Positions 9,334 to 35,621 of a stretch of 64,000 bases of DNA are shown here, piece by piece. The notes beneath the pieces were generated by a model, which did no database searches, was not told the origin of the DNA, and worked only from the letters and a program-made list of their open reading frames with translations. This stretch comes from an uncultured Gammaproteobacteria bacterium (GTDB taxonomy: Bacteria; Patescibacteriota; Patescibacteriia; S139-126). Each line of letters starts with the position of its first letter. Position 1 is the first letter of the stretch. The position numbers and the translations under genes were made by a program. The DNA is taken from contig CAZINS010000001.1 of assembly GCA_964540695.1 (NCBI GenBank), positions 156,826-220,825 on the forward strand, given 5' to 3'.

Positions 9334-10623
9334 ATGCATTTAATTGATTTTGATTTAAATATCAATGAGATTACCAAAGTTGAAGGTTCGGCTGGACTGG
9401 ATGTTAAAGTGACCAATGGTAAGGTTGAGTATGTTAAATTTAAAGTTCAAGACTACAAAAGATTTTATACTCAAGCTATTCAAGGAAAGCCGATTGCGGC
9501 TGTACCACAACTATTATCTCGTATTTGTGGTACTTGTAGTATTGCTCATTTGATTGCCAGTATTGAAGCGGTGGAAAAAACTTTACAATATAAACCAAGT
9601 GAACAAACAAAAATTTTACGTGCTCTCACCTATCACGGACTAATTATCAGAGATCACGCTTTACATCTTTATGTTTTTGTCTTACCAGATTTATTTAATA
9701 AAGATTCTTTGCTTGATTTTGATGAAACAGACAAGATTCAACACCAACTACTTCATGATACTTTTGCGGTAAAAAGTGCTGGTAACAATTTAGCTAAATA
9801 TACTGCGGGACGCAGTGTCCATGCACCCTTCCCTGTTCCTGGTGGCTTTTTAAAAATACCTGACAATGCAGGTAAACAAGCTATCATCGAAGAAATGGAA
9901 AAAGTTAGACCAGCAGTTTTACGGCTGATTGAATTATTTTTAAATTCAACTGATTCCTTAATTAGGCCAACCAACTACGCGGCTTTAAAAAATGATGATT
10001 ATTCATATCTTGAAGGTAAACTCTGTGATATGAACGGCGTTATTGCTGAAGAAGCGGAATTTCGCAATCATCTTGAACACGTAGTATTGCCTTATTCTCA
10101 AGCCTCAGCCTATACTTTTGCCGGGCAACCATATCGAGTCGGTGCCTTGGCTAGAATAAATCTCAACCAACAGGCACTAAATGAAAGAACAAAAAAAGAT
10201 TGTACTCAAGCTTTAAAAATTTTCCCCTCACACAACGCTTATCATAATAATTTGGCCCAAGCCATTGAAATTCTTCACTCAATTGATGATACAATCACTA
10301 TACTAAAAAATAATGAATTCAAACCAGAAAAACCTGATAAACTTGACTTGCGTGCTGCCACTGGAGTGGGTGTAGTCGAAGCACCTAGAGGAACCCTGTA
10401 CCATAAACTTGAAATAGATGACAAAGGTATAGTTACCAAAGGTGAAGTAATAGTGCCAACGGGTCAAAATCAAATCACGATTGAACTTGATATTGCCGAG
10501 TATATACAAAAAAATTTAAACATGCCAAAAAAAGAGCTGGCTTTAGCTTGTGAAAAAATAATTCGCGCTTACGATCCCTGTATGAGTTGTGCTTCACACT
10601 TTTTGGAAGTTAACTGGCTATAA
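9334..10623 (+). CDS. [NiFe]-hydrogenase large subunit
   Basis: N-terminal RICGTCSIAH (RxCGxCxxxH) and C-terminal DPCMSCASH (DPCxxCxxH) nickel-ligating motifs; 429 aa with short C-terminal extension FLEVNWL after the cleavage His. Confidence 0.9.
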   Translation: MHLIDFDLNINEITKVEGSAGLDVKVTNGKVEYVKFKVQDYKRFYTQAIQGKPIAAVPQLLSRICGTCSIAHLIASIEAVEKTLQYKPSEQTKILRALTYHGLIIRDHALHLYVFVLPDLFNKDSLLDFDETDKIQHQLLHDTFAVKSAGNNLAKYTAGRSVHAPFPVPGGFLKIPDNAGKQAIIEEMEKVRPAVLRLIELFLNSTDSLIRPTNYAALKNDDYSYLEGKLCDMNGVIAEEAEFRNHLEHVVLPYSQASAYTFAGQPYRVGALARINLNQQALNERTKKDCTQALKIFPSHNAYHNNLAQAIEILHSIDDTITILKNNEFKPEKPDKLDLRAATGVGVVEAPRGTLYHKLEIDDKGIVTKGEVIVPTGQNQITIELDIAEYIQKNLNMPKKELALACEKIIRAYDPCMSCASHFLEVNWL

Positions 10624-10984
10624 TTTCCGCCACTTGCCGGGCAATTTTTTCCACTTCTCCTTGTGGTGGTACACCAACTATCTTGATAGTAATATCAGGA
10701 TATATTTTTTTTATTAGCTTTAATTCAGTTGCTAAATCATAATCATGTAAACTTACCCGTTTAGTATCTTTAATTTGATCTAAGTCAGAAATCAATTTAA
10801 CCACAGAAAAATTTCTTACTACATCGATAATCCACCAAATTGACTCACCTAGAGGTATAATTTGTTCTTGGGGATCCTGATGGATAAACTCAGCATGGGG
10901 CAAAAGCTTTTGTAAATGTGGCACTAAACGAAAAGCTAACGAATCTTGAGGTAGATTTGGGTTACCAAATACGGAAATTTTCAT
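10610..10984 (-). CDS. Hydrogenase maturation endopeptidase (HycI/HybD family)
   Basis: 124 aa, VFGNPN start, conserved D...HD (SLHDYD) metal-ligand pattern; convergent with and adjacent to the large subunit. Confidence 0.65.
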   Translation of the reverse strand: MKISVFGNPNLPQDSLAFRLVPHLQKLLPHAEFIHQDPQEQIIPLGESIWWIIDVVRNFSVVKLISDLDQIKDTKRVSLHDYDLATELKLIKKIYPDITIKIVGVPPQGEVEKIARQVAEIIAS

Positions 10985-11742
10985 TTTTGAAATTTAATTT
11001 TTCCTTGCTGAATGTCTTGAGGTTTTTTGATTGATTTAACTTTTTGGGGATGTAAAATATTATCCACTACATTTTGCTTAAAAATATTTTGATTTGTAAA
11101 ATCAATAATAATTTTTTTTCTAATTGTTTCTTTCTGCCACCCCACAGTATAAATATTATTGATCTGTTGTTTATAAATAATACTAGCTAGCTTATCTGAT
11201 TTATAATCAGTTGCGACCACTACCCCAAAATGGTGATACCCAAAATCATTTTCTGAAATTTTTAAAGATGATGGAATTAAAACTTTTTTAAAAACTATCT
11301 TTCCCCAAGGCAACCTACTTTCCAGGTCAGCAAATTTTTGTTGAGAAAAAAAATAAATTTTCTTAACTTGCGAAAAATTTAATAAATGAGCTAGGGCGTA
11401 AAAAGGATTATTTTTTGTAGCAATATTATTATTATGAATGTCAGTAGCATGATCTAAAGCAAAACACTGAAGAATATCAGCTTGAGTTAAGTGGAGTATA
11501 TTTTTTTGCTGAGCATATTTTGCTAAAGTAGCCGGTGCTGCGGTAATAATATGCTGACCTATATCTGAAAGTTTCAAAATTTTGCCAGGTAAACTAAATA
11601 AATCAATATCAGCTCGGCAATCTGGATTTAAAAATAAATAACTAATTAACCGTAAAGCTTCGCGGTCAAGGGTAATTTTATGATAATGAGGGAAAGTATT
11701 TTGCCTAACTTTTTGTAAAATATCAACTATGTTCGTTGGCAT
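10981..11742 (-). CDS. hypothetical protein
   Basis: 253 aa ORF between an EamA transporter and the hydrogenase protease; no motif recognised. Confidence 0.4.
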   Translation of the reverse strand: MPTNIVDILQKVRQNTFPHYHKITLDREALRLISYLFLNPDCRADIDLFSLPGKILKLSDIGQHIITAAPATLAKYAQQKNILHLTQADILQCFALDHATDIHNNNIATKNNPFYALAHLLNFSQVKKIYFFSQQKFADLESRLPWGKIVFKKVLIPSSLKISENDFGYHHFGVVVATDYKSDKLASIIYKQQINNIYTVGWQKETIRKKIIIDFTNQNIFKQNVVDNILHPQKVKSIKKPQDIQQGKIKFQK

Positions 11743-12625
11743 GTTTTTGCTGACCTAAATATTTACTACTAATCAAATAACCACTAGCAAAAATAATTAT
11801 TAAACCTATCATTTGTCCAATACCTAAAGCGGTACGAAAAAAACTAAAATTTAATAAAGCAGTAATTGGCACTGCTATGGTTAAAATAGTAGTCGCCGTA
11901 AAAGCTGGTATAAGTTTTAAACCTTGATAAAAAGTATAAACATAACCAAATAACAGTAGTGAGGTAATTATTACCCAACGCCATTCAATAAAACCAAAAC
12001 TGGTTAATTGTGCATATCCACCTTGCCAAACTAAATAAAACCAAATTAATGCCCCACCCAACAACATACGCGCTAAAGCAACAATATTGGCTGGCAAATC
12101 TTTTAATAATTTTTTGGATATTATTATTTCTACCGACCAAAATAAAGTGGCTATTAAAATTAAAACATCACCATAATTTAAAGAAAACGATTTCATTTTT
12201 AAAAATAAAACTAAACCAAGCATCATAAATACTAAAGAAAGAATATATTTTTTTGATAATTTTTCTTTAAGAAATATAATCCCTAAAAACGCAACATACA
12301 AAAATAAAGTTTTATGAATAAACCCGGCATTTAAACTACTGGTCAACTTTAAACCATGAAAAAATAGTAAAAATGGAATACTGCCACCAAATAAACCTAC
12401 TAACAATAACTTTGGCCATTGCCGTTTGGTAATATTTTTAAATGACAACCATTCTTTAGTAATAACTATAAGAATAAAAAACATAACACCAACTAAAATG
12501 TTTTTTAAGCCAGTAAATAAAGTTGCGTCAATATTATTGACTCCATATTTATTTAAAAAGATGGAAAAACCACTAATTAGTGCGGTAGCAGTGACAAATA
12601 AAACTCCTTGATAATATTTTTGCAT
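11723..12625 (-). CDS. EamA/DMT-family transporter (10 TM)
   Basis: 300 aa, two repeated 5-TM halves typical of the drug/metabolite transporter superfamily. Confidence 0.6.
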   Translation of the reverse strand: MQKYYQGVLFVTATALISGFSIFLNKYGVNNIDATLFTGLKNILVGVMFFILIVITKEWLSFKNITKRQWPKLLLVGLFGGSIPFLLFFHGLKLTSSLNAGFIHKTLFLYVAFLGIIFLKEKLSKKYILSLVFMMLGLVLFLKMKSFSLNYGDVLILIATLFWSVEIIISKKLLKDLPANIVALARMLLGGALIWFYLVWQGGYAQLTSFGFIEWRWVIITSLLLFGYVYTFYQGLKLIPAFTATTILTIAVPITALLNFSFFRTALGIGQMIGLIIIFASGYLISSKYLGQQKHANEHS

Positions 12626-12630
12626 ATTAA

Positions 12631-12813
12631 TTATTTATTATTATTTAATTGAGAAATAGGTACTTTTGCTACGGCAAATTTTTCAGCAATAAATAGCCAA
12701 TCATCTACTTGGCAATCTTCAGTCATTAAGCTTAAATCAACCCAATTACCATCTTCTAACTTAGCTCTATTCCCTTTAGTAGCTATGACTTTTTTTGGTA
12801 TTTGAAAACACAT
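12631..12813 (-). CDS. hypC: Hydrogenase maturation factor HypC/HupF
   Basis: N-terminal MCFQIPKKVIA (MCxxIP signature with Cys2), about 60 aa beta-barrel size, hydrophobic C-terminal FIAEKFAVAKV. Confidence 0.7.
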   Translation of the reverse strand: MCFQIPKKVIATKGNRAKLEDGNWVDLSLMTEDCQVDDWLFIAEKFAVAKVPISQLNNNK

Positions 12814-12854
12814 AAAAATAATTTAAAAATCAAAAAGTATAGTATAAAATATTT

Positions 12855-15512
12855 TCAAATATACTGTTGGGCTTTTTTTACATTGATTTTTCCGCCCACA
12901 TCGAAAACAACAATATCACGTCGACTAATCTTACCTGATAATAAATACTTAGCCAAAGCATCATCAATTTGTTCTTGGATAACTCGTCGCATGGGACGTG
13001 CACCAAATAAAGGGTCAAAACCACTGACTGCTAATTCATCTAAAGCAGCTGGAGTTATTTCCAAATGAATACCTTTTTGCAACAAACGTTGTTGCGATTT
13101 TTTTATCATCAATTTAGCAATGGCTGTAATATGCTCTTGAGTAAGTGGTGTAAAAACAACAATATTATCAAAACGATTTAAAAATTCTGGCCTAAATACC
13201 TCTTTTAACTTTTCTACCAATAACATTTCTTTAATAGCTGCTACTTGAGTACCGGCTCTTAATTGATCTTGAATAAACTGCGAACCAGCATTAGAAGTAG
13301 CAATAATTATTACATTGGTAAAATCAACTACTTGACCAGACCAATCAGTCAACCGACCATCGTCCATTACTTGTAAAAATATATTTAAAATATCTGTATG
13401 AGCTTTTTCAATTTCATCAAGTAACAATACGGCAAAAGGATTTTGTTTTATCCCTTCTGTCAATAACCCTCCCTTAGGATTTTTTTCTGTACCAAGTAAA
13501 CGACCAATTGAATCCTTATTTTGATATTCAGACATATCAAGCCTAATTAAATCATCACTACTGCCAAAATAGGTCAAGGCTACTGTTTTTGCTAATTCTG
13601 TTTTACCCACGCCAGTAGGCCCTAAAAATAACAAATTAACAATTGGTCTTTTTTCATCTCTCAACTCAGTCCGTGCCCGCCTTAAAGCAGAAGCTACGGC
13701 ATTTACTGCTTCTGACTGATTAATAATATATTGATGAATCTCTTCTTCTAAATTCAACAGTTTGCTTGACTCATCTTGAGTTATCTTAGTTAATGGTATA
13801 TTTATTTTTTGTGATACTAAGCTGGCTACATCTTCACTGGTAATTAAACTTTTTTCTCCTTTTTGTTTTAGAATATAAACCGCCACTTCCTCTAAAATTT
13901 TAATGGCTTTTTCTGGTAAATAATAATCGTGCATAAATCGATTGGACAACTCAATTGCTTTATTAAGTGCCCCTAGCGAAAAAAAGACTTTATATTTATA
14001 TTCATAATAATTTACCTTGGCAATCAATACAGCCATGGTTTGATCTTTGTTAGTTTCATTTATTTCAATTTTTTGTAACTTACTTCCTAAAGCCTTACCC
14101 GCAATACTACTACGATAATCAGTTGGATTGGAAGTGGTCAAAACTAAAAATCTATCATCACCAATTAAATCAGCCATCACTTCAGATAAATCAAGTCCTT
14201 CACCGCCCTTGGTATTAATGCCATAGATATCATGAATATTTTCTATTACTAAAACCACATTACCAGCTCTAATCATTTCTTGATGAATCCGCAATATTCT
14301 TTCTTCCAACATACCAGGTGAATTAGCACCAGCCACCAATCTAGATAAAGACAAAGAAACTATACGTTTGTCTTTAAGATTATTTGGTACATCCTCTGTT
14401 ACCATTAACTGAGCAACTCCTTCCACAATCGTTGTTTTACCAACACCTGGAAAACCTACTAAAACTACACTATTACTACCAGCCTCAATCACCCGAAAAA
14501 TTTCTTCAATTTCATTTTCTCTCCCAACACAAATTTCTAAATTTCCGTATTTTGCCGCTAAAGTTAAATCATAACCAAATCTATCCAAATAAGGAGTAGC
14601 CACTGCAGTCATAGACTTATTCATTGAATTTTTTGGTTTATAACGTGATAATTTTCGTTGTCGTTGATAAGTTTCATACAACCTATCATTAACATTAATC
14701 CAATCAATTACTTGGTGTAATTGATCAGTGCTTATTGACATATCATTGAATAAATCTTGTACATTAAAATCACTCATCACTAAAGCATCTAAAATTTGAG
14801 CTACTCCAACCCATGATTGATGACCTTTGACTGCTAAGAAGTAACTTTTAAATAAAATATTATAAACTTTCTTACTTACTGTTGGTAAATTACTATTACT
14901 TGCCTGACTAGTCATAACATTTCTCACTCGTAAAAGCACATCGTCACGACTAACACCCAGTCTCGCTAGTACTCCAACTAATTTTTTACTTTCTAAAATT
15001 GAAAATAACAGTGCCCAACTATTGACTTCAGTTTGATTAAAATTTTTGGCTACTTGCCAAGATCTTTCTATCAATAACAAAGTATCTAATCGAAAACTAA
15101 TAGCTAAATCAACAGGTTGATTGTCCAATTTATCTAAAAATTTTTTATCGATTTGTTTTGATGTTAAAACTGACTGTTTATTTTTTATGGAAATTAATCG
15201 AAAAAATAAATAAGATAAAGACAACCAGGCCACCCAAAAAACAAATAATTCTTGACGAAAGAAAAAATCAATCGAAAATTGCCAATTATATTGCCAGAAT
15301 AAGATAAAAAAACGAGTTAAACCGTGTAACCAAATCAAACTCAATAAAATATTTAAAGTATAATTAAAATAATTGTTTATTTTACTCTGCCACACACCAC
15401 TTGCATCAATCCTTTTATTCCAATAAAAAACCATTGAACCAAAATGATAATGCGCTCTTTGTTCTGTCACTTCAACTTCTAAATTATTTAAATCTGGAAA
15501 ATTTAAACTCAT
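12855..15512 (-). CDS. ClpB/ClpC-type double-AAA+ chaperone with unusual hydrophobic N-terminal extension
   Basis: Two Walker A sites (GFPGVGKTT; GPTGVGKTE), Clp_N-like repeats, sensor/arginine finger motifs. The first about 110 aa contain two strongly hydrophobic segments; start codon uncertain. Confidence 0.8.
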   Translation of the reverse strand: MSLNFPDLNNLEVEVTEQRAHYHFGSMVFYWNKRIDASGVWQSKINNYFNYTLNILLSLIWLHGLTRFFILFWQYNWQFSIDFFFRQELFVFWVAWLSLSYLFFRLISIKNKQSVLTSKQIDKKFLDKLDNQPVDLAISFRLDTLLLIERSWQVAKNFNQTEVNSWALLFSILESKKLVGVLARLGVSRDDVLLRVRNVMTSQASNSNLPTVSKKVYNILFKSYFLAVKGHQSWVGVAQILDALVMSDFNVQDLFNDMSISTDQLHQVIDWINVNDRLYETYQRQRKLSRYKPKNSMNKSMTAVATPYLDRFGYDLTLAAKYGNLEICVGRENEIEEIFRVIEAGSNSVVLVGFPGVGKTTIVEGVAQLMVTEDVPNNLKDKRIVSLSLSRLVAGANSPGMLEERILRIHQEMIRAGNVVLVIENIHDIYGINTKGGEGLDLSEVMADLIGDDRFLVLTTSNPTDYRSSIAGKALGSKLQKIEINETNKDQTMAVLIAKVNYYEYKYKVFFSLGALNKAIELSNRFMHDYYLPEKAIKILEEVAVYILKQKGEKSLITSEDVASLVSQKINIPLTKITQDESSKLLNLEEEIHQYIINQSEAVNAVASALRRARTELRDEKRPIVNLLFLGPTGVGKTELAKTVALTYFGSSDDLIRLDMSEYQNKDSIGRLLGTEKNPKGGLLTEGIKQNPFAVLLLDEIEKAHTDILNIFLQVMDDGRLTDWSGQVVDFTNVIIIATSNAGSQFIQDQLRAGTQVAAIKEMLLVEKLKEVFRPEFLNRFDNIVVFTPLTQEHITAIAKLMIKKSQQRLLQKGIHLEITPAALDELAVSGFDPLFGARPMRRVIQEQIDDALAKYLLSGKISRRDIVVFDVGGKINVKKAQQYI

Positions 15513-24490: not shown

Positions 24491-26209
24491 TTACATTTTA
24501 TCAACTGGTTTGATATTAAGCAAATCAAGACCACTGGCAATAATTTTAGCTGTTGCTTGAATCAACAATAAACGTTGATTTCTTATTTGTTTTTCTGCTT
24601 TTAACACTGGCACATTTTGATAATAATTATTAGCTAAACTTGCCAATTGATATAAATATTCAGCTAAATGATTGGCTTGTTGTTTTTCATAGTAATGTAA
24701 TGCCACCAGTGGCCACTGACATATTTTTCTTACCAAAATATTTTCTTGTTCAGAAAAATTATACTGCTTGACTTTAGTATTTTTGGCTTTTTGTAAAATA
24801 CGTTTTAACCTCACCAAAGTATACAAAAGATAAGGCCCGGTATTACCTTCTAAACTCAAGGAGGCCTTAGGATCAAAAGTTATGGTAGACTTGGGATTGG
24901 TTTTTAAAAACCAGTATTTAATAGCAGCGATAGCTATAGTTTGAGCTAATTTTTTTTGTTGGTTTAATTTTAATTTTGGTTGCCGTTGTTTTACTTCCTG
25001 CCATGCTTCTTCGGTTAGTTCATTTATTAAATCATCAGCATCAACCACCGTACCCTCACGTGATTTCATTTTCCCTTGGGGTAATAACACTTGCCCGTAA
25101 GGATAATGCTGGCACTTAACTTGCCAATCATAACCTAAAATTTCCAATAACTTAAATAAGACTTTAAAATGATATAGTTGCTCATCACCCACCACATATA
25201 TCATTTTTGTAAAATTATAATCTTTAAATCTTTTAACAGCCAAATATATATCCTGGGTAATATAAACCGTGGTACCATCAGCTCTTAGTAAAATTTTTTC
25301 TCCACTATCACGTCCCCCTAAACCATAAGTACTTAAATCTACCACCATGGCACCAGCGGAATTACTTTTTACTAACCCTTGCTTAGCTGCTTGAGTAATT
25401 ATTTCTCTACCCTGATTATAAAGTTTACTTTCATAATAAATCTGATCAAACTCTGAGCCATATACTCTATACGTCTCTGTCCAGCCTTTTATAACCCAAG
25501 AATTCATTTTCCGCCATAAAGAAATTATTTTTTTATCTTTCTTCTCCCAAGCTTGTAATAATCCTCTGGCTTCAGTAATTAAATCAGGGTTAGTTTTTTC
25601 CTCTTGATTATATTTAACATACAGATCACCAACAAACTTATCTCCTTTAATCTGTACACTTTGTGGAGTTTTATTATTTCCCCATTTAAGATAAGCCAGC
25701 AAACTTTTCATAATATGAATACCGCGGTCATTGATAACTTCTGTTTTTATTACCTGGTAACCGAAAAATTCATAAATTTTTGCCAAACTCATACCTATAG
25801 CATCATTACGTAAATGTCCCAAGTGTAAGGGTTTATTGGTGTTGGGTGATGAATATTCTATAACTACTTTTTTCTTACTACCTATATTTATTTGACCGAA
25901 TTTTTTTTCCTGAGCTGCTTGATTAACATATTTGATCAGTTGTTGTGGTGATAAGAAAAAATTGATAAATCCTTGGCCGGCAACTTTTACTTCTATATTA
26001 TTTTCTCTTAACCAACTAGTTTGCGATAATTTCTCAGCTAAATCTGTAGCTACTTGCTGGGGATTTTTTTTCTCTTGACGAGCAATGATTAAAGCTATAT
26101 TTGTACTTAAATCACCAAAATCATTGGTGGGAGGAGTCTCCAAAACAAACTCCTCTTGCCCAGTCAAAAGTTTAATTTCATTTTTCAATTGTGAGTAAAA
26201 TGTAATCAT
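24491..26209 (-). CDS. argS: Arginyl-tRNA synthetase
   Basis: 572 aa, HLGHLRN (HIGH-class motif), Arg_tRNA_synt N-domain and DALR anticodon-binding region ending in M. Confidence 0.85.
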   Translation of the reverse strand: MITFYSQLKNEIKLLTGQEEFVLETPPTNDFGDLSTNIALIIARQEKKNPQQVATDLAEKLSQTSWLRENNIEVKVAGQGFINFFLSPQQLIKYVNQAAQEKKFGQINIGSKKKVVIEYSSPNTNKPLHLGHLRNDAIGMSLAKIYEFFGYQVIKTEVINDRGIHIMKSLLAYLKWGNNKTPQSVQIKGDKFVGDLYVKYNQEEKTNPDLITEARGLLQAWEKKDKKIISLWRKMNSWVIKGWTETYRVYGSEFDQIYYESKLYNQGREIITQAAKQGLVKSNSAGAMVVDLSTYGLGGRDSGEKILLRADGTTVYITQDIYLAVKRFKDYNFTKMIYVVGDEQLYHFKVLFKLLEILGYDWQVKCQHYPYGQVLLPQGKMKSREGTVVDADDLINELTEEAWQEVKQRQPKLKLNQQKKLAQTIAIAAIKYWFLKTNPKSTITFDPKASLSLEGNTGPYLLYTLVRLKRILQKAKNTKVKQYNFSEQENILVRKICQWPLVALHYYEKQQANHLAEYLYQLASLANNYYQNVPVLKAEKQIRNQRLLLIQATAKIIASGLDLLNIKPVDKM

Positions 26210-26293
26210 CTTGATTTTATAGTAATGATTTTAGGTAAAATCAGCAAGCTGGCTAAGTTTGTTAGCCAGGTAATATTCCTATACAATAAAGTT

Positions 26294-26740
26294 ATGGAAA
26301 TATTAACCAACAAACAAGCTTTATTCAATTATCTACCTTTACAAAAAATAGAGGCGGGGCTTGTTTTGACCGGGCCGGAAGTAAAATCAGTTAAAATGAA
26401 AAGAGTTGATTTTAAAGGTAGTTATGTGACTATCAAAGATAATCATGCCTGGCTGGTAGGACTACATGTTGCCCCATATCAACCAGCTGGTGGTGTACAA
26501 AAAAACTATGAACCAAAAAGACAAAGAAAACTACTTTTAACTAAAAAAGAAATTAATCTCATCCGGGGACAACTGACCAATAAAGGATTGACAGTTGTCC
26601 CTTTGCGGCTATATACTACCAGGGGTCTGGTGAAACTGGAACTAGCAATAGTCCGTGGTAAAAAACAATTTGATAAAAAAGAAACAATAAAAAAAAGAGA
26701 TACCGACCGCGATATCAGACGCACTTTGAAAGAATACTAG
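26294..26740 (+). CDS. smpB: SsrA-binding protein SmpB
   Basis: MEILTNKQALFNYLPLQKIEAGLVLTGPEVKSVK...matches the SmpB fold; basic C-terminal tail. The ORF-track start 26225 adds 23 non-conserved residues, so the internal ATG is preferred. Lies directly upstream of tmRNA. Confidence 0.8.
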   Translation: MEILTNKQALFNYLPLQKIEAGLVLTGPEVKSVKMKRVDFKGSYVTIKDNHAWLVGLHVAPYQPAGGVQKNYEPKRQRKLLLTKKEINLIRGQLTNKGLTVVPLRLYTTRGLVKLELAIVRGKKQFDKKETIKKRDTDRDIRRTLKEY

Positions 26741-26744
26741 CTTA

Positions 26745-26760
26745 ATTACTAATTAGTAAT
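26745..26760. repeat. Perfect 16 bp palindrome ATTACTAATTAGTAAT, 5 bp after the smpB stop
   Basis: Self-complementary on inspection; possible protein-binding site between smpB and ssrA. Confidence 0.5.
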
Positions 26761-26769
26761 GACTAATAT

Positions 26770-26840
26770 CTAATGAATTTTCTAATTAGTTAATTAATAA
26801 ATTAAATCATTTATTAATAATTAGTTATTAGTAATTTTAT
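26770..26840 (+). repeat. AT-rich direct repeat copy A (partner at 28669-28737)
   Basis: ctaatgaatt...ttaaatcatttattaataattagttattagtaattttat aligns at about 85 percent identity with the copy downstream of rplT. Confidence 0.6.
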
Positions 26841-26842
26841 CC

Positions 26843-27218
26843 GGGGATGTCATCTATTCGCTAAGAAAGTAGAGACGTATGTTCAAGCTGAGCGGCAACT
26901 CATTAAACTACCACAACTATAAGTGCCAATACACTTATGAGCAAAATTAGGAACGCTTTTGCGCTACCTAACTTTGCACTTGCTGTTGCCTAATTAGGCC
27001 ACAGCCATCGCTGAAGTCTGGCTCCAAGATTTCTTAAGCGGTGTCATAACTGGAGCTTGAACGCCGATACGCTGACTATTGTCGTTTGAAATATTGCTCA
27101 GCACCACCAAAAAGTTTTCGCCTGATTTTATCTTTTTGGTTTACCAATCAGGCTAAGTTTGTAAATCATGCGTTAAAACTTTTTTACCACGTGGGTGCAA
27201 AGCCCACCATCTCCACCA
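26843..27218 (+). ncRNA. ssrA: tmRNA (SsrA), one-piece
   Basis: 5' GGGGAUG pairs with 3' CAUCUCC, including a G3:U wobble (alanine identity element). T-arm GUGGG-UGCAAAG-CCCAC, discriminator A, encoded CCA at 27216-27218. Internal tag ORF ends ...PNFALAVA-UAA at 26991-26993. Immediately downstream of smpB. Confidence 0.8.
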
Positions 27219-27379
27219 AACTAAGCTTGGTAATTGGGGAGCTTAACTTCCCACCATCAAATTTTTAATTTTATAATTTTTAATTTTATAATTTTTAAAC
27301 TACTCTTCATATATAAGTACTCTGGCCACAAATACTTAAATTTTATATAATATAATTATAATCATTAACCCTCAAATTT

Positions 27380-27886
27380 ATTCAAAAATTTAGAATCAAT
27401 CAACAAATAAACCTACCAGAAGTCCGTCTAGTAGGAGCCGACGGAGAACAGTTAGGCGTAGTTTCTACGGTAGAAGCCCTACGTCAAGCCAGAGAAGCGG
27501 GACTGGATTTGGTTGAAGTATCACCTAAAGCAGAAATACCTGTCTGTCGTATCTTAGACTACGGTCAATGGATTTATAACCAAAATAAGCTACAACAAAA
27601 AGCTAAGGTCAAAAGCAGAAAATCAGAAATTAAAGGAGTAAGACTTACTTACAATATGGGAAGCCACGACTTAGAAGTCAGAGCCAACCAGGCAAGTAAA
27701 TTTTTAAATCAAGGCGATCGAGTCAAAACTGAAATTATTCTTAAAGGTAGACAAAAGGCTCATCCTGAAAAAGTAAAAGAAATAATGATGAAATTTCAAT
27801 CTATGCTTGGTACAAATATTAGAGTGGACCAAGAACCTACACGCGAAAGCAATAAATTTACAGCCCTTTACTCCTTAAAAAAATAA
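27380..27886 (+). CDS. infC: Translation initiation factor IF-3, probable AUU start
   Basis: Upstream of the ORF-track segment the frame stays open to a TAA at 27359-27361 and encodes the conserved IF3 N-terminus INQQINLPEVRLVGADGEQLGVVSTVEALRQAREAGLDLVEV. No in-frame ATG exists, so the in-frame ATT at 27380 matches the AUU start known for infC. Confidence 0.7.
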   Translation: MQKFRINQQINLPEVRLVGADGEQLGVVSTVEALRQAREAGLDLVEVSPKAEIPVCRILDYGQWIYNQNKLQQKAKVKSRKSEIKGVRLTYNMGSHDLEVRANQASKFLNQGDRVKTEIILKGRQKAHPEKVKEIMMKFQSMLGTNIRVDQEPTRESNKFTALYSLKK

Positions 27887-27897
27887 AGCTTTATTGC

Positions 27898-27926
27898 TTG
27901 ACACTATTTATTTAATACTTTATTAT
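27898..27926 (+). promoter_or_regulatory. Candidate promoter for rpmI-rplT (TTGACA-17-TATTAT) followed by a leader hairpin
   Basis: -35 TTGACA 27898-27903, 17 nt spacer, -10 TATTAT 27921-27926. An imperfect hairpin aaatcctgtcccac/gtgggattt at 27929-27962 precedes ATG 27972. Confidence 0.4.
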
Positions 27927-27971
27927 AAATCCTGTCCCACTATTTTGGGTGGGATTTATTCATAAAAAAAG

Positions 27972-28169
27972 ATGCCAAAATTAAAAACACACAAAACAAC
28001 CAATAAGAGAATTAGAGTAAGTAAGAATAAAAAACTGACCCAAAGAACTTCCGGTCAGGATCATTTTAATTCCAGAGAAACTGGCAAAGTAACTCGCAAT
28101 AAAAGACGTGACCATAAAGTAGCCAAGGTAAACGAAAAAAACATTCGCACTCTCCTACCTTATCATTAA
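27972..28169 (+). CDS. rpmI: 50S ribosomal protein L35
   Basis: MPKLKTHKTTNKRIRVSKNKK...65 aa, highly basic, canonical L35 start. Confidence 0.85.
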   Translation: MPKLKTHKTTNKRIRVSKNKKLTQRTSGQDHFNSRETGKVTRNKRRDHKVAKVNEKNIRTLLPYH

Positions 28170-28208
28170 TATCTTAATTCTTAATTCTAGATTCTAAATT
28201 CTAATCAT

Positions 28209-28559
28209 ATGGCCAGAGTTAAAAGAGGCACAACTCATACTAAAAAAAGAAGAAAACTTAGAAAGGCTGTTAAAGGCTATCGCTGGACTCGTAAAAGTGG
28301 TATCCGACAAGCCAAAACTGCTGTGGTTAAAGCCGGAGCATATGCACTAAGAGATAGACGAGCAAAAAAGAGAATTAATCGATCTTTATGGTTGATTAGA
28401 TTGAATGCCGCCGTCCGTGAACGTGGAACTAGTTACTCTAAATTTATCGGGGCAATGAAAAAGAAAAATATTGAACTAGATCGTAAAGTACTATCTGAAC
28501 TAGCAATGAATCACCCACAAATATTTGATCAGATTTTTAAACAAGTAATGGCTGAATAA
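28209..28559 (+). CDS. rplT: 50S ribosomal protein L20
   Basis: MARVKRGTTHTKKRRKLRKAVKGYRW canonical L20 N-terminus; 116 aa; infC-rpmI-rplT order conserved. Confidence 0.9.
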   Translation: MARVKRGTTHTKKRRKLRKAVKGYRWTRKSGIRQAKTAVVKAGAYALRDRRAKKRINRSLWLIRLNAAVRERGTSYSKFIGAMKKKNIELDRKVLSELAMNHPQIFDQIFKQVMAE

Positions 28560-28582
28560 TTTTTTTAAAAACAGAGAGTATA

Positions 28583-28610
28583 AAACCCCGAATCACTTCG
28601 GGGTTTTTTA
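28583..28610 (+). terminator. Rho-independent terminator after rplT
   Basis: aaaaccccgaa tcac ttcggggtttttt. Confidence 0.75.
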
Positions 28611-28668
28611 ATAACCAATTTCCAAGAAACAAGATACTAATAAATTATTAATTTCTAATAACTAATTA

Positions 28669-28737
28669 CTAATGAATTACTAATTATTAAATTAAATCAT
28701 TGATTAATAATTAATAATTAGTTATTAGTAATTTTAT
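28669..28737 (+). repeat. AT-rich direct repeat copy B (partner at 26770-26840)
   Basis: ctaatgaatt...ttaaatcattgattaataattaataattagttattagtaattttat. Confidence 0.6.
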
Positions 28738-29151
28738 GTTCTAATAAATACAATCTTATTATTCAAACATCCAAACTTTTAACAGCTAAAAACAAATCAA
28801 CTATTCCCCCACAACCTTACCCGGTTTTCACTTCTTCTATTACTATAATTCAAATTAAGTCCACGTAAATTTATCGGCTGAATATTTTTCTTATTTCTTT
28901 TCCAAGTAAAAATATTTTGTTTTTTTTCTGACATAAAAATTATTTAAGTTATTTAAACTTAAAATAAAAAGCAGTACGCGCTTAGCGTACTACCCTAATT
29001 TTTATTGCCTGCACTTTATCTTGACAAGATACTTTGATTTTCATATTTTTGTTTTTAATTTTTATTTTTGTGAATTTTATTTAAATTGTTTTATAATTTA
29101 CAATTTTAAATTTATAATTTTTATTACTATATCTTCATTATACAGCATTTT

Positions 29152-29180
29152 TTGCTTTTTGTCAAGAAAAAAGGTATAAT
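29152..29180 (+). promoter_or_regulatory. Candidate promoter for the 29205 gene (TTGCTT-17-TATAAT)
   Basis: -10 TATAAT at 29175-29180 preceded by GG; ATG 25 nt downstream without a Shine-Dalgarno. Confidence 0.4.
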
Positions 29181-29204
29181 AATTTATATAAATAAATTAA
29201 ATTT

Positions 29205-29567
29205 ATGAAAAACAAACTACTACTTGTATTTTTAATATCATTTTTATTTATTCCGATTCTAACTTATGCAACTACTACACAATCTCAAAACACCCAATCA
29301 TCTGACAATACGGTAAAACTAACCAATCCCCTAAGCAGTGACGACCCAGCAATTATTATTGGCAATGTCATAAAAGGTATTTTAGGGCTAACTGGAGTTT
29401 TAGCACTAGCAGCTTTTATAGCTGGTGGAGTAATGTGGATGACTTCAGGTGGTAATGCTGATCGAGTGAAAAAAGGTAGGGATATTCTGGTCTGGGCAAT
29501 TATTGGGCTATTTATAGTCTTTTCCAGCTACAGTATCTTAAAATACGTGTTTGATATTTTAGCCTAA
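29205..29567 (+). CDS. TrbC/VirB2-like small membrane protein (signal peptide plus two TM helices)
   Basis: 120 aa: cleavable signal MKNKLLLVFLISFLFIPILTYA, polar linker, TM1 IIGNVIKGILGLTGVLALAAFIAGGVMWM, short basic loop, TM2 ILVWAIIGLFIVFSSYSI. Same architecture as T4SS pilins. Paralog at 35265-35621. Confidence 0.45.
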   Translation: MKNKLLLVFLISFLFIPILTYATTTQSQNTQSSDNTVKLTNPLSSDDPAIIIGNVIKGILGLTGVLALAAFIAGGVMWMTSGGNADRVKKGRDILVWAIIGLFIVFSSYSILKYVFDILA

Positions 29568-29593
29568 AAAATTAATCAAATTACTTGCTCAAT

Positions 29594-29618
29594 AACCCGC
29601 CCAAACTGGCGGGTTTTA
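29594..29618 (+). terminator. Rho-independent terminator
   Basis: acccgcc caaact ggcgggtttt. Confidence 0.65.
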
Positions 29619-29642
29619 CTTATATTTTAAAAGTGAATAGTA

Positions 29643-29671
29643 TTGACTTTTTCTTAAAAATATGCTATATT
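29643..29671 (+). promoter_or_regulatory. Near-consensus sigma70 promoter with extended -10
   Basis: TTGACT (29643-29648), 17 nt spacer ending TGC, TATATT (29666-29671). Confidence 0.6.
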
Positions 29672-29736
29672 GGCTAGTTATAGATTAATATATAGTGAAC
29701 TTTGACAATTTAATAACTTATATTTTATTTATAAAA

Positions 29737-29789
29737 TTAGTTAGTTGGTTTAGATTGAGATTTTTTCTTTATTTAAACCAACTAACTAA
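29737..29789 (+). promoter_or_regulatory. Perfect 16 bp inverted repeat (TTAGTTAGTTGGTTTA ... TAAACCAACTAACTAA) with 21 nt loop in the 5' UTR of the 29820 operon
   Basis: Arms at 29737-29752 and 29774-29789 are exact reverse complements; located between the promoter and the AAGGAG RBS (29808-29813). Confidence 0.6.
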
Positions 29790-29819
29790 CAATAAATAAA
29801 TAAAATAAAGGAGTCAATC

Positions 29820-30563
29820 ATGGCAATCTTTGGTAATTTCTTCAATAAACTAAAAAATGTTTTTGGAGGAGAATTGATCGGTACCGCAGCTGGTACTGTT
29901 AGCGGAAAAATGATTAGTGAGTTAATTGGCATGCCTGCCAAAAAAATCACTGAAATTGCACTTGATAAAATGTTTCAAGTGCCCCCGCGCGCAGAACTGC
30001 AAAAAGTTCTATTAGGTTTAAACGACACCCAGAGAAAATTTTGGGAAGCTAGATTTGAGGAAGCTAAAAAATACTGGGAAAAAAGACTTGGGGAAGATAA
30101 TAAAAACCTTCCTCACCGTCCTTCAGAAAATGAAGTGGTGACAGCCTGGTGTAAACCGCTGTTACTAAAAAAAGTCAAAGTTCTTTTGAAGAAAAGTGAC
30201 GGCACTCCTATATTAAATAAAGGGGTACCTGTATTTGCCGAATCAGAGTCTGACTTAGTCAGTGACGATGATCTTCGTGCTTATATCTACGGCAAAGTCG
30301 CTGACATTGGCGAGAAAGAATTTTGGATCTGGACAGATTTGCTAATCCACGATAAGTGGAATCAGATCTTCCAAATTTGGGGAGATAAATTTAAAATAAA
30401 AATTTTAAACCCAATTATAAAAAGGTTGCAAGAAACATTTGAAGTAATTGTAAAATACTCTGCTATTGCAACCGCTGCAGGGAAAGTTAGCTTAGAAAAA
30501 GCTGACACCATGACCGAAGAAATGATCGCAGAATCAAAAAACAAGAAATTAAATATTTTTTAA
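29820..30563 (+). CDS. hypothetical protein with Gly-rich amphipathic N-terminus
   Basis: 247 aa; MAIFGNFFNKLKNVFGGELIGTAAGTVSG then a charged helical region; strong RBS; 12 nt before the next gene. Confidence 0.5.
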   Translation: MAIFGNFFNKLKNVFGGELIGTAAGTVSGKMISELIGMPAKKITEIALDKMFQVPPRAELQKVLLGLNDTQRKFWEARFEEAKKYWEKRLGEDNKNLPHRPSENEVVTAWCKPLLLKKVKVLLKKSDGTPILNKGVPVFAESESDLVSDDDLRAYIYGKVADIGEKEFWIWTDLLIHDKWNQIFQIWGDKFKIKILNPIIKRLQETFEVIVKYSAIATAAGKVSLEKADTMTEEMIAESKNKKLNIF

Positions 30564-30575
30564 AGGAGTTTAAGA

Positions 30576-31868
30576 ATGCAACTATTCGTAGTTTATGTGT
30601 TAATCATCATCGCGTCTTTGTGGATGCTTTACTATCTGCTCTTTCATACCTCAGCTACGGGGTTCAACTTACTCGGCAGAGTCAGGGAATTAGAGTTAGG
30701 ACTTATCAATCAAGTATCCCAAGCATTGGGAAGAATATTGGCAGTCCTAGGATATCCACTTGGAGAGATAGAGATGATTCAAAACAGAATTGTTAACGAA
30801 GGCGTTAATTTCGCCCAAAACCTAATCAGACAAATTGCCAGGCAATCATTCTTTATCGCCTGTGGAATAAGTGGAATGCTACTTATATTACTAATTGGAG
30901 TAATATTCCATTCAAATCTGATTATGATCATTATTCTGATTGCTGCTGTGGTATGGTCGTTCTTGACCATGGTAATTTATGATCCAATTATTGGATCAAT
31001 CGCTCAGGGCAAAAAAATAAGAAGAAGTATCCGACCAATTTCGCTTCTCCTTGCTTACATAGGGATATTGACCTTACTGTGGTTAAACTTCAATGGAACA
31101 TCATTCTTTAATGAAGTTCTGGGAATATTTGTGATTCTTTCACTAGTACTAATGATATTTTCATTTAGATCTTATTATCTGATGAGAATAACAAACACAG
31201 CTGGGTATGCCTTGGGAACTATATTAACTGTTTTACTTATTCTGTTTATTTTCAAAAGCTCAAGCCCGAGCTTATATGGAAACCTGGTTGACACTAGGAC
31301 AGAATTTGAACAAACAAATAAAGTAAAGTATGTTACCCAACAGACTCCCTTATACGCTATTATAATCACTAATGAAGATACAACAATTGTAAAGGTTAAT
31401 TCCCAAGAAGGAATTCCAACTATCAAAAAAGGTGAACAAGTAGTTCGTGGTGATAATACAGTAGTTTATAAGCAAGAAGTTTTTGGCGATATTTGGTTAG
31501 CAGATGATAATGGTTTATATGTTTTAGGACCATTCTGGATACCACTTAGATGGTTATCTAATAATGACCTAAACCCAAAAAATATACTAACTGATAATCA
31601 AAATCAGTCAGTACAACCACCTATTGATACTCCTACCGATCCAAATACTTTTACCCTCCCCCCTCATACCAGGGTAAAGGTGATGGATATCCCAGCTGGT
31701 CGGGAAAATATAGTTTTCCGATCAACTGGAAAATATCGAATTATTGAAAGAGACGGACCAAAATTGGTCCTCTCGAAAGTTTTCAAATACAATACCAATG
31801 TTGCCGGAGGCACTTTGGAAATTGAAAACATTAATGATTTTCCAATTGAGTTCAAAGTAGAACTCTAA
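30576..31868 (+). CDS. polytopic membrane protein with C-terminal soluble beta-rich domain (hypothetical)
   Basis: 430 aa; about 7 hydrophobic helices in the first 230 aa, then a soluble Thr/Asn/Val-rich domain; RBS AAAGGAG upstream. Confidence 0.5.
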   Translation: MQLFVVYVLIIIASLWMLYYLLFHTSATGFNLLGRVRELELGLINQVSQALGRILAVLGYPLGEIEMIQNRIVNEGVNFAQNLIRQIARQSFFIACGISGMLLILLIGVIFHSNLIMIIILIAAVVWSFLTMVIYDPIIGSIAQGKKIRRSIRPISLLLAYIGILTLLWLNFNGTSFFNEVLGIFVILSLVLMIFSFRSYYLMRITNTAGYALGTILTVLLILFIFKSSSPSLYGNLVDTRTEFEQTNKVKYVTQQTPLYAIIITNEDTTIVKVNSQEGIPTIKKGEQVVRGDNTVVYKQEVFGDIWLADDNGLYVLGPFWIPLRWLSNNDLNPKNILTDNQNQSVQPPIDTPTDPNTFTLPPHTRVKVMDIPAGRENIVFRSTGKYRIIERDGPKLVLSKVFKYNTNVAGGTLEIENINDFPIEFKVEL

Positions 31869-31881
31869 ATTATTACATAAC

Positions 31882-31913
31882 AAGCCGTTGGTTAACATAC
31901 CAACGGCTTTTTC
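31882..31913 (+). terminator. Rho-independent terminator, followed by TTGACA promoter-like hexamer at 31914-31919
   Basis: aagccgttgg ttaacatac ccaacggcttttt. Confidence 0.65.
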
Positions 31914-31983
31914 TTGACAAAAATATAAATTTGTAGTAATTTATATCATTCTATACATTAAAAAATAAATAAAAGGAGTATCT

Positions 31984-32592
31984 ATGGCACCGCTTATACC
32001 AAAAAAAATAGGTGATTTTTTTATAAAAATACCTGTTTTAATCAGGAACAACCATAAATTTTTTCTAACTGGTCTTATCACTTTTTTGCTTTCCTTTATT
32101 ATCATGATAATAATAATTTTACTAACCACCAATAGTGCATCAAACTATATTGATAAAAAAAATTTAGAAATAAAACAACAATTACAAGACCAAATACAAG
32201 TTATCAGCACTACTATTGCTGACACAGTACTGCCATACATTTCATTCCTCAATCAGGAAAGAAAATTTGTTGATTCGTCATTATTGGCTTTGTCTTTTCG
32301 AGTAGACTCTACTCAAAACAGGTTAACTAAATTTGAAAAAAAATATAAGCATGATAATAAATTTCTAACTTCCTACATTGCCACCCGAGATGGTTTCTCT
32401 AATCCAGACAGTTTGTCTAATTATGCCGCTAATATTTGTATGAACGTATATGGTAGAATGCTTGACGAACTACAAAGTAGAATACCCCCCCAAGAACCGT
32501 CGCAACAATGTGATGAAGAAACCAAAGTCAAATTTGACAATCGGCCGGAAATTAAAAAAGGTATCTCCATCAGAATTGATGAAAAAAAATAA
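31984..32592 (+). CDS. membrane-anchored coiled-coil protein (hypothetical)
   Basis: 202 aa; TM FLTGLITFLLSFIIMIIIILL then helical region; RBS AAAGGAG at 31973-31979. Confidence 0.45.
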   Translation: MAPLIPKKIGDFFIKIPVLIRNNHKFFLTGLITFLLSFIIMIIIILLTTNSASNYIDKKNLEIKQQLQDQIQVISTTIADTVLPYISFLNQERKFVDSSLLALSFRVDSTQNRLTKFEKKYKHDNKFLTSYIATRDGFSNPDSLSNYAANICMNVYGRMLDELQSRIPPQEPSQQCDEETKVKFDNRPEIKKGISIRIDEKK

Positions 32593-32595
32593 ACT

Positions 32596-32628
32596 AAAAA
32601 CCCGTAACAATTACGGGTTTTATTTTTT
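32596..32628. terminator. Bidirectional terminator between convergent genes
   Basis: aaaacccgtaa caa ttacgggtttt with A/T runs on both sides. Confidence 0.7.
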
Positions 32629-32631
32629 ATT

Positions 32632-33339
32632 TTAATAATTTATTCCCAAATTACTAGCCAACTCTCCTATCAATATACCAGCACCAAGAGCAAGAGTACC
32701 TATTAACAATACTTTTAATCCGGATTTGAACCAAGATTTTTTTGTATAAATTGAAGTAAACACGCCTACTAAAAATAGTCCCAATAAAGTAGCCGCAATT
32801 GATATAGGCATAGCAACTTTGACTGATAAAAATAAATATGGAGTTAGTGCAACCAGTCCACCAAGAGTATAAGAAAAAAACATAAACACACCAGTTATTT
32901 TAGGGCTATTGTTTTGATCAGGTAAAACACTAAGTTCATGTAAAGCTTTTTCTTTGAGCATCAACTTTTTATTCTGACTAACTACTTCCGCCATTTGTTT
33001 TGCTAAGTCATTAGGCCAGCCATCTTTTTGATATATCGCCAATAAATCTTTTTTTTCTATTTCCATTTGATTTACTAAATCTTTTTTTTGTTCATGCAAT
33101 TGACTAATATCACGATCACGATTTGATTGATTGGAAACATATGAACCTATGCCCATAGAAATAGATTCAACTGTAATAATTACAAAACCGGATAAAAGCA
33201 CTGTGAAATGATTTTGACTACCGATAGCAATACCGGTTATTGCTCCTAAAGTTGAAACCATACCATCTTCCAATCCAAAAACTACATCCCGTAGTGATTG
33301 GACAAATCTTGAATTTTTATTGTTGAAAAAATTATTCAT
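32632..33339 (-). CDS. VIT1/CCC1-family iron/manganese transporter
   Basis: LRDVVFGLEDGMVSTLGAITGIAIG N-terminal motif of the VIT family, central coiled-coil loop, 235 aa. Confidence 0.65.
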   Translation of the reverse strand: MNNFFNNKNSRFVQSLRDVVFGLEDGMVSTLGAITGIAIGSQNHFTVLLSGFVIITVESISMGIGSYVSNQSNRDRDISQLHEQKKDLVNQMEIEKKDLLAIYQKDGWPNDLAKQMAEVVSQNKKLMLKEKALHELSVLPDQNNSPKITGVFMFFSYTLGGLVALTPYLFLSVKVAMPISIAATLLGLFLVGVFTSIYTKKSWFKSGLKVLLIGTLALGAGILIGELASNLGINY

Positions 33340-35264: not shown

Positions 35265-35621
35265 TTATGATGTTGCATCTAAAATTACTCTGAAAACAAA
35301 GGTACTAATAGCATAAGCTACAATAATTATTAAAAGACCAATCACCCCAGCAACAATTGTTTTTCTAGCAGTTTCCCCCCGATCAGTACCATAACCACTA
35401 GCTGCCCCCACTACACCATAAATTATAATCAAAACCATTAGTAATCCTAAGATACCTAAGGCAATATTAATTATCCTGGCAATTGTCTCTCTAATATCCC
35501 TCGTCCCCAAACCAATTGCACTACCATAACCCAAACCAAAATCAACTTGAGCAAGAGTGGCTAGGGGTATTAAAAATAAACTTAAAATAGCTAAACCTAA
35601 TATTTGTTTATTTATTTTCAT
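35265..35621 (-). CDS. TrbC/VirB2-like small membrane protein (paralogous architecture to 29205-29567)
   Basis: 118 aa: signal MKINKQILGLAILSLFLIPLATLA, TM1 IINIALGILGLLMVLIIIYGVVGAA, short loop, TM2 IVAGVIGLLIIIVAYAISTFVF. Confidence 0.45.
   Translation of the reverse strand: MKINKQILGLAILSLFLIPLATLAQVDFGLGYGSAIGLGTRDIRETIARIINIALGILGLLMVLIIIYGVVGAASGYGTDRGETARKTIVAGVIGLLIIIVAYAISTFVFRVILDATS

Follow-up and report, generated by a model that had tools for sequence, protein, structure and literature searches.

An exchangeable gene cassette beside a VirB2-like pilin gene in a Paceibacter-like genome: a candidate recombining cell-surface complex

Patescibacteria, or bacteria of the candidate phyla radiation (CPR), are thought to live attached to host cells, and to our knowledge the surface determinants of this attachment are almost unknown outside the Saccharibacteria. 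Exposed surface structures of bacteria can be encoded by replacement-type flexible genomic islands, for example the loci for O-antigen, capsule and pilin modification. VirB2-like pilins are widespread and sometimes essential in Patescibacteria, where many VirB2-like genes sit away from virB4; in Paceibacteria, virB4 usually lies near dnaA (PMC12102498). Here we analyse a 64,000-nucleotide stretch of DNA (assembly GCA_964540695.1, contig CAZINS010000001.1, positions 156,826 to 220,825; hereafter the window) and within it a cluster at 29152-32628 that encodes a pilin of this kind followed by three proteins, designated B (247 aa), C (430 aa) and D (202 aa).

Comparison with related loci indicates that the pilin gene is conserved and that the genes downstream of it are replaced between close relatives by highly diverged alleles. 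With moderate confidence we interpret B, C and D as components of a recombining cell-surface complex that partners the pilin and forms a lineage-specific allelic module of this Paceibacter-like CPR genome.

An exchangeable cassette downstream of a conserved pilin gene

The original prediction, made from the letters of the window alone, had described four plus-strand open reading frames (ORFs) of 120, 247, 430 and 202 aa. All four were confirmed, with coordinates taken from the ORF list:

29205-29567, plus strand: pilin gene, 120 aa
29820-30563, plus strand: gene B, 247 aa
30576-31868, plus strand: gene C, 430 aa
31984-32592, plus strand: gene D, 202 aa

The cluster lies immediately downstream of smpB, the tmRNA gene (26843-27218) and infC-rpmI-rplT, and to its right are convergent VIT1, CYTH, GAF and patatin genes. 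The DNA of the locus has a G+C content of approximately 30-35%.

An orthologous pilin gene (at least ~55% identity) together with B and C was found in loci L001, L004, L007, L009, L011, L014, L015, L019, L021, L023, L024 and L025-L030, which belong to a single Paceibacter-like CPR clade. Wherever this orthologue occurs the gene order is pilin-(A)-B-C-(D), where A is an extra gene of other strains, and the B-C pair is present in every sampled genome of the clade, with only the allele varying. It had been suggested that co-occurrence of the gene pair at 29820 and 30576 be checked in other genomes, and the pair turns out to be conserved, as a fusion in one relative and as a tandem duplicate in another. 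In L019, B and C are fused as one 718-aa protein (P0017), of which the N-terminal 200 residues match B (E 1e-17) and are followed by an extra transmembrane segment (TM) and then by C; this is a Rosetta-stone fusion, and it also assigns B to the cytoplasm. Locus L011 has two tandem copies of the B-C pair behind the pilin gene, and the adjacent infC-rplT block is inverted. A remote homologue of C was also found in the distant and more G+C-rich locus L016, between rpsL-rpsG-fusA/penicillin-binding protein genes and a convergent T4SS_pilin gene (hhalign probability 87%, E 4e-6, using a profile that was built without the L016 protein).

Between the window and L004, L007, L009 and L021 the proteins of the flanking genes share 77-93% identity, and C is only 27-30% identical to the window protein in loci whose flanks are 85-93% identical. 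The alleles found in the slot are listed below, with identities relative to the window unless otherwise given.

Window: A absent; B1; C alpha; D alpha
L004: A present; B2; C alpha (75%); D alpha (70%)
L007/L009: A absent; B1 (77%/70%); C beta (29-30%); D beta (23-28%)
L001: A present; B2; C with a beta-like N-terminal part and an alpha-like C-terminal putative barrel (64%); D 31% identical to the L007-type D, with no match to the window D
L021: A present; B2 (no identity detectable); C 27%; D absent

The right flank of L021 is the most similar to that of the window (patatin 93%).

The closest comparison is with L024, the DNA of which is 98.4% identical to window positions 24597-29717. Identity stops at 29717/29718, just past a conserved leader motif upstream of B (described below) that forms the left-hand limit of the homology used in cassette exchange, and resumes at 30480 (93%), 28 codons before the end of B. 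Between these breakpoints the window has 762 bp, comprising a hairpin in the 5' untranslated region (5'-UTR) and the body of B1, and L024 has 1472 bp, comprising gene A (301 aa) and the body of a B2 protein. These breakpoints account for the observation that the B1 body of the window bears a tail that is otherwise seen on B2 proteins. The window B is a mosaic, in which a B1-type body is joined at 30480 to a tail of the type that accompanies alpha-type C, and the locus is a clean natural case of recombination with one breakpoint in an operon leader and the other in a protein tail. The slot is thus fixed, has conserved flanks and holds weakly homologous cassettes in near-identical strains, as is found for replacement islands. 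Such a recombining hypervariable slot between conserved housekeeping flanks is visible only by comparison with relatives and could not have been read from the window sequence.

The type of the B tail (six loci compared) and the type of D follow the C allele and not the type of the B body. Such covariation would be predicted were C to be contacted by both the B tail and D, with simple linkage as the alternative explanation.

Further genes were noted in and around the slot of individual strains. A gene for a 339-344-aa protein with a Por_Secre_tail domain, the C-terminal sorting domain of the type IX secretion system, lies directly after C or D in some strains (L001 7188-8222, L015 17536-18555 and L021 4204-5223, all on the minus strand) and is absent from the window, from which we take it that the variable island holds further optional surface-protein genes. 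In L015 the pilin gene is separated from B-C by two inserted genes (10451-14782, minus strand), one for a 1443-aa protein, the C-terminal part of which looks glycosyltransferase-like by eye, and one of 114 aa. The records of the metagenome-assembled genomes that carry L013 and L015 are titled 'uncultured Gammaproteobacteria bacterium', yet the locus is of CPR type; judging from gene content, the title is probably a mislabel.

The pilin and its proposed orphan partners

The 120-aa protein had been called TrbC-like. It matches PF18895 (T4SS_pilin) at 36.2 bits (cut-off 26.6), which upholds the assignment in kind, with TrbC itself (PF04956) scoring 21.4 bits, under its cut-off of 27.9, and the NCBIfam Mbov_0395 pilin-like family scoring 17 bits, under a cut-off of 40. 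Its layout is that of a signal peptide, a variable low-complexity stretch rich in Q, N and S, and two conserved hydrophobic helices; the hydropathy segments span residues 5-23, 59-77 and 94-112, and the two helices are separated by a short charged loop, SGGNADRVKKGRD. By its sequence, then, the protein is a member of the VirB2/TrbC-type T4SS_pilin family.

The 10 largest ORFs of the window showed no VirB4, VirD4 or VirB3 domain, nor did the precomputed Pfam lists covering 8-10 kb to either side of the loci in relatives. More distant T4SS_pilin homologues (L031-L036) have 42-55% core identity and lie in a conserved housekeeping neighbourhood without T4SS genes, made up of genes for SMC, a ComM-like Mg-chelatase ATPase, a solute-binding protein, the pilin, a RodZ-like HTH_25 protein and RecA. 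Genes of 889-892 aa beside these remote homologues were considered as candidates for VirB4 and rejected, being SMC. As the L031-L036 loci are without B-C, the association with B-C is specific to the pilin orthogroup studied here.

A second VirB2-like gene, encoding 118 aa, is located at 35265-35621 (minus strand) between the patatin and DUF2127 genes of the window. Its product scores 25.3 bits against PF18895, slightly below cut-off, and is 88-92% identical in relatives, far better conserved than the neighbouring cassette. Apart from both VirB2-like genes, a gene at 52197-53957 (minus strand) specifies a T2SSE ATPase of the PilB type that carries an MshEN domain, and may mark a type IV pilus gene cluster approximately 20 kb to the right of the module.

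By hydropathy, B has no TM and no signal peptide, and its N-terminus is Gly-rich and amphipathic; it is accordingly predicted to be cytoplasmic. The description of the four genes as a cluster of secreted and membrane proteins thus holds insofar as they form a coherent envelope gene cluster with its own signals, but does not extend to B. The Gly-rich N-terminus was considered as a possible Walker-A NTPase site and this was rejected, since it lacks GxxxxGK[ST] and the lysine is not conserved (alignment by eye). Profile comparison of B1 with B2 (hhalign, E 9e-5, probability 59%) suggests that the two are probably homologous along their whole length.

C had been described as a polytopic membrane protein with a C-terminal domain, and our analysis agrees, giving five to six hydropathy segments followed by a C-terminal region of 200 aa. 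Loops 1, 3 and 5 contain 6, 5 and 2 Lys plus Arg residues, respectively, and loops 2 and 4 contain none, so that a predicted six-TM topology fits the positive-inside rule. With this topology a helical hairpin (residues 24-90) would be cytoplasmic, as would the signature loop YDPII..KKIRRSIRP, and the 200-residue C-terminal region would lie outside. C relatives with an extra N-terminal TM after a Lys-rich tail, and the fusion protein, agree with the same orientation. In low-confidence structure models (pLDDT 51 and 55.5) the C-terminal region is beta-rich, and a small double-stranded beta-helix or cupin-like barrel is modelled for its final ~75 aa.

D, which combines a basic N-terminus with a single TM (residues 28-46) and two cysteines in its C-terminal part, is predicted to be bitopic, with its N-terminus inside and its ectodomain outside. 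The two cysteines are kept in five of the five D-family homologues compared, and the analogous L011 protein, F291, has one. The original prediction of a TM coiled-coil protein was correct as regards the single TM; for the coiled coil we found a sub-threshold DUF2205 match only (E 2e-4).

Searches of Pfam, NCBIfam, PHROGs, PADLOC and PDB-sequence families returned nothing for B, C or D, and the same is true of the 15 C-family members searched against Pfam, NCBIfam, PHROGs and PADLOC. The claim that no homologue is obvious, which on exhaustive searching holds for three of the four proteins (the pilin being of a known family), therefore stands, and none of the confident homology to housekeeping families that would have spoken against a module of its own was detected in those collections. 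PDB sequence profile searches with C and B returned noise only, neither the pilin nor A, B, C or D matched PADLOC or PHROGs at E<=0.01, and family-library scans of the module proteins gave no nuclease, NTPase or toxin domain. Tblastn against phage and plasmid records and a search of viral contigs likewise gave no matches; an origin in a prophage, plasmid or mobile element was rejected on this ground and because mobility genes are absent. The families are also small. A word-index search of 5.8 billion proteins gave seven matches each for B and C, and a wider C profile added only one further protein; an exhaustive profile search of 1.84 billion representative proteins gave 11 clusters for C. A scan of a genome collection found nothing with the C profile and three loci with the pilin profile.

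Transcription signals and the B leader

Three transcription units, each with a promoter and a terminator, had been proposed for the four genes. This is supported by three G+C-rich terminator hairpins and by promoters that are conserved in relatives, the -10 element of the D promoter being weak. The signals are as follows.

29152-29180, plus strand: pilin promoter, TTGCTT-17-TATAAT, read from the sequence and conserved in relatives
29165->29137, minus strand: divergent promoter, a perfect TTGACA-17-TATAAT abutting the pilin -35 element (scan)
29594-29615, plus strand: intrinsic terminator of the pilin gene (terminator scan)
29643-29671, plus strand: promoter of the B-C operon, TTGACT-17-TATATT with an extended -10 TGn (scan and conservation)
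29697-29708, plus strand: leader motif GAACTTTGACAA, the only exact match within the window, present in all loci examined
29718-29808, plus strand: extended imperfect hairpin with 43-nt arms, ending one base before the ribosome site of B
29737-29752 / 29774-29789, plus strand: palindrome core with perfect 16-nt arms, unique in the window
31882-31909, plus strand: intrinsic terminator after C, 11 pairs of which 6 are G-C (scan; position kept in relatives)
31914-31942, plus strand: D promoter, -35 TTGACA (31914-31919) and a weak -10 TAATTT at 17 nt, read from the sequence
32597-32621, both strands: bidirectional terminator common to D and the convergent VIT1-family gene (scan)
32632-33339, minus strand: VIT1-family gene, annotated via its orthologue in a relative

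The pilin gene is monocistronic, B and C are co-transcribed, as the start of C is 13 nt past the stop of B, and D forms the third unit. In a scan of 6 kb, terminator-like sites were enriched (10 observed against 3.3 +/- 2.0 expected), and promoter-like hexamers were not enriched in this AT-rich DNA (25 observed against 28 expected). Since generic hexamers are not enriched, our assignment of promoters rests on conservation at orthologous positions: the pilin and B-C promoters and the TTGACA of D recur there despite diverged neighbouring intergenic DNA. The pilin promoter and the divergent minus-strand promoter are both kept in L001, L004, L007, L009 and L019. The B-C promoter is nearly identical in the window, L001, L004, L007, L009, L015 and L024, and it can still be recognised in L011 and L019. 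The -35 element of D directly follows the T-tract of the C terminator and is kept in L001, L004, L007, L009 and L011; the assignment of its -10 as TAATTT is uncertain. A hairpin is found at the place of the pilin terminator in relatives, with different stem sequences. Strong AGGAG ribosome sites, which had been ascribed to all the genes, are present in B, C and D (AAAGGAG, 6-8 nt upstream of ATG) but not in the pilin gene, where the ~24 bases between the -10 element and the ATG are A and T only and contain no Shine-Dalgarno sequence, as is the case in relatives.

Downstream of the divergent promoter there is a conserved 20-aa ORF (MKIKVSCQDKVQAIKIRVVR), the stop codon of which falls inside a terminator-like hairpin (28996->28968, minus strand), followed by a conserved basic 45-aa ORF (MSEKKQNIFTWKRNKKNIQPINLRGLNLNYSNRRSENRVRLWGNS) that is called as a gene in L001, L019 and L024. 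This arrangement (29047->28795, minus strand) looks like a leader peptide with an attenuator. Neither the small ORFs nor their region matched Pfam, NCBIfam or Rfam. An AT-rich inverted repeat (28650-28733) directly follows the rplT terminator; its 42-nt arms are 79% complementary and have no spacer, and relatives have other AT-rich sequence at this position.

The leader motif occupies a fixed position after the B-C promoter and takes the form GAACTTT(G/A)A(C/A)AA in all loci. It fits 8-9 of the 11 positions of GYTCTTTAANA, a boxA (NusB-NusE site) consensus (PMC5725501) that may not be that of this organism, and departs from it at positions 2-3. As in boxA leaders of the rrn/suhB type, a stable hairpin precedes the motif in L001, L004, L011 and L019; in the window this hairpin is weak.

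The palindrome downstream of the motif, which had been described as operator-like, is indeed present, but its properties fit an RNA hairpin better than an operator. It lies inside the transcribed leader, being 65-120 nt downstream of the -10 element. The fold of the RNA has a predicted energy of -38.5 kcal/mol (z = -6.9), with none of 200 shuffles equally stable. The hairpin occurs in the window, L007/L014, L009 and L015, where the B proteins are only 48-77% identical, and is confined to the B1-type cassette, being absent from the A+B2-type loci. Its consensus has 24 pairs, which are kept although the surrounding leader differs between loci. There is one compensatory change from G-C to A-U, with an A.C intermediate in L009; other positions show G.U pairs or one-sided changes to G.U, which plus-strand RNA alone can tolerate. 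It is the position in the leader, the plus-strand G.U pairs, the compensatory change and the restriction to one cassette type that favour RNA. With four sequences compared, this evidence is suggestive only that the palindrome is a 5'-UTR RNA hairpin and not an operator; its role may perhaps be in stability, processing or translation control. A scan of metagenomes with the palindrome pattern gave no match, and Rfam searches of the intergenic regions gave sub-threshold chance matches only. The possibility of an integron attC-like site was dropped, as the arms do not fit the R'/R'' consensus and there is no integrase in the gene lists examined.

Interpretation and comparison with known systems

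A model that accommodates these observations has a conserved, separately transcribed pilin gene followed by an exchangeable cassette, consisting of the B-C operon and D here and including A and the other B type elsewhere. C would be a six-TM scaffold with two beta domains displayed on the outside of the cell, of which the distal would be a small cupin-like or lectin-like barrel. B would act as an adaptor in the cytoplasm and would dock, probably via its C-terminal tail, on the helical hairpin of C that is predicted to lie there, and A may be an additional cytoplasmic adaptor alongside B in some strains. D would be a bitopic partner with a disulfide-bonded ectodomain matched to the C allele. 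Together with the constant pilin, we infer, B, C and D would make up a surface complex for contact or recognition, which could act on host cells, on partner cells or, incidentally, on phage. Alleles would be swapped between near-identical strains by homologous recombination, with its anchors in the conserved promoter/leader and in the 3' end of B, and diversifying or balancing selection at the cell surface would maintain very divergent alleles in the population. Exchange of cassettes between near-clonal strains is the signature expected of a specificity determinant.

Several observations weigh against this interpretation. The variability of C is spread over the whole protein, its three regions being 76, 67 and 80% identical to those of L004. 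The pilin gene is transcribed separately and in L015 is 5 kb from B-C, and at the L031-L036 pilin loci there are no B-C genes nearby. Because most loci share ancestry and synteny, which is broken only in L011 and L016, adjacency is only weakly independent evidence. The models of C are poor, with only the last ~75 residues usable (pLDDT 60-74). As B, C and D have no annotated relative, a function for the module is purely inferred.

The main rival explanation is that the cluster encodes a highly diverged type IV secretion system (T4SS) or pilus platform, in which C would correspond to VirB6, D to VirB8 and B to a cytoplasmic accessory protein, with the genes for VirB4 and further components at other sites. 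In Patescibacteria VirB6 and VirB8 mostly escape detection, which has been read as extreme sequence divergence (PMC12102498), and this, along with the virB4-distant VirB2-like genes reported in the same study, would leave room for such a platform here. The pilin belongs to PF18895, the architecture resembles that of a VirB2 protein with a polytopic and a bitopic protein, C has at least five TM and D has an N-in/C-out topology by hydropathy, as VirB6 and VirB8 require, and the pilin-C association is repeated in the second genomic context of L016. The domain searches point the other way: none of the 15 C-family members matches TrbL/VirB6 (PF04610) at E<=0.1, with no match for the window C at E<=1, VirB8 (PF04335) is not matched by W_D202, L007_D203 or L011_F291, and the VirB4, VirD4 and VirB3 searches described above were negative. 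Furthermore, the large loop of C is predicted to be cytoplasmic, not periplasmic, and core machinery is not normally exchanged as 27%-identical alleles between 98%-identical strains. Fold searches with the C models were uninformative. We therefore consider a T4SS platform unlikely.

Two further explanations are less likely. Replacement of cassettes in near-identical strains and mosaic alleles are reminiscent of defence islands and polymorphic toxin loci, and a cytoplasmic protein paired with a membrane protein is common in abortive-infection systems, so that the cassette could be a polymorphic defence, exclusion or toxin-immunity system (for example abortive infection, or superinfection or kin exclusion) with the pilin as a bystander. 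This is improbable given that A, B, C and D have no PADLOC or PHROG matches, that nuclease, NTPase and toxin domains were absent from the scans and B has no P-loop, that B-C is in every sampled genome of the clade, that the slot is among housekeeping genes without mobility genes, and that ectodomains with conserved cysteines point to extracellular work. Slightly less probable again is the absence of any functional module, in which case four unrelated lineage-specific envelope genes would share a fast-evolving intergenic stretch beside rplT. The B::C fusion, the tandem duplication in L011 next to an inverted infC-rplT block, the C-pilin adjacency in the different context of L016 and the covariation of the B tail and D with C all argue for a module, whereas the three separate transcription units, the synteny by descent of most loci and the dispensability of D and A in some of them are what chance neighbours would show.

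We therefore favour a recombining surface complex that partners the pilin. The locus offers candidate partners for a VirB2-like pilin without a nearby virB4, in the form of three orphan families tied to one pilin orthologue by linkage, fusion and covariation. A bolder proposal, which we put forward as speculation with rather low odds of being right, is that B-C-D is an undescribed class of strain-specific surface recognition apparatus in episymbiotic CPR bacteria, with a constant pilin and no dedicated T4SS ATPase locus, in which the cassettes would determine which hosts or partners are recognised, or the susceptibility to phage, and B would couple the lectin-like C domains to the cell interior. 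As the families are confined to a small Paceibacter-like clade, the immediate reach of these findings is narrow.

With respect to known systems, the pilin is already of a known kind. It resembles the T4SS_pilin proteins described in Patescibacteria (PMC12102498) in its PF18895 score, its signal peptide and two helices, its chromosomal location and the second, weaker copy nearby, and differs from them in that it is not beside virB4 or another T4SS gene, is not part of a pilin array, and is constantly paired with the orphan B-C genes, a pairing described neither in that study nor in the other literature searched. C is like VirB6 and extended VirB6 proteins in being polytopic, in lying beside a VirB2-type pilin and in having an extra exposed C-terminal domain, and differs in its extreme allelic divergence, in addition to the missing TrbL/VirB6 match, the predicted cytoplasmic loop and the lack of a nearby T4SS ATPase. 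We take the likeness to extended VirB6/TraG-type proteins to be a lead rather than a test.

The closest parallel at the level of the locus is with replacement-type islands, with which the module shares a fixed slot, flanks that are ~98% identical around barely homologous cassettes, an absence of mobility genes and predicted surface products. The cassette is small by comparison (2-4 genes) and encodes membrane and adaptor proteins, not enzymes of glycan synthesis, and its breakpoints lie in an operon leader and a coding tail, which gives rise to mosaic proteins. Cassette swapping at this locus thus falls within the established category of replacement genomic islands that encode surface structures, and its content is new: the A, B, C and D families and their obligate pairing with one pilin orthologue are not described in the literature that we searched.

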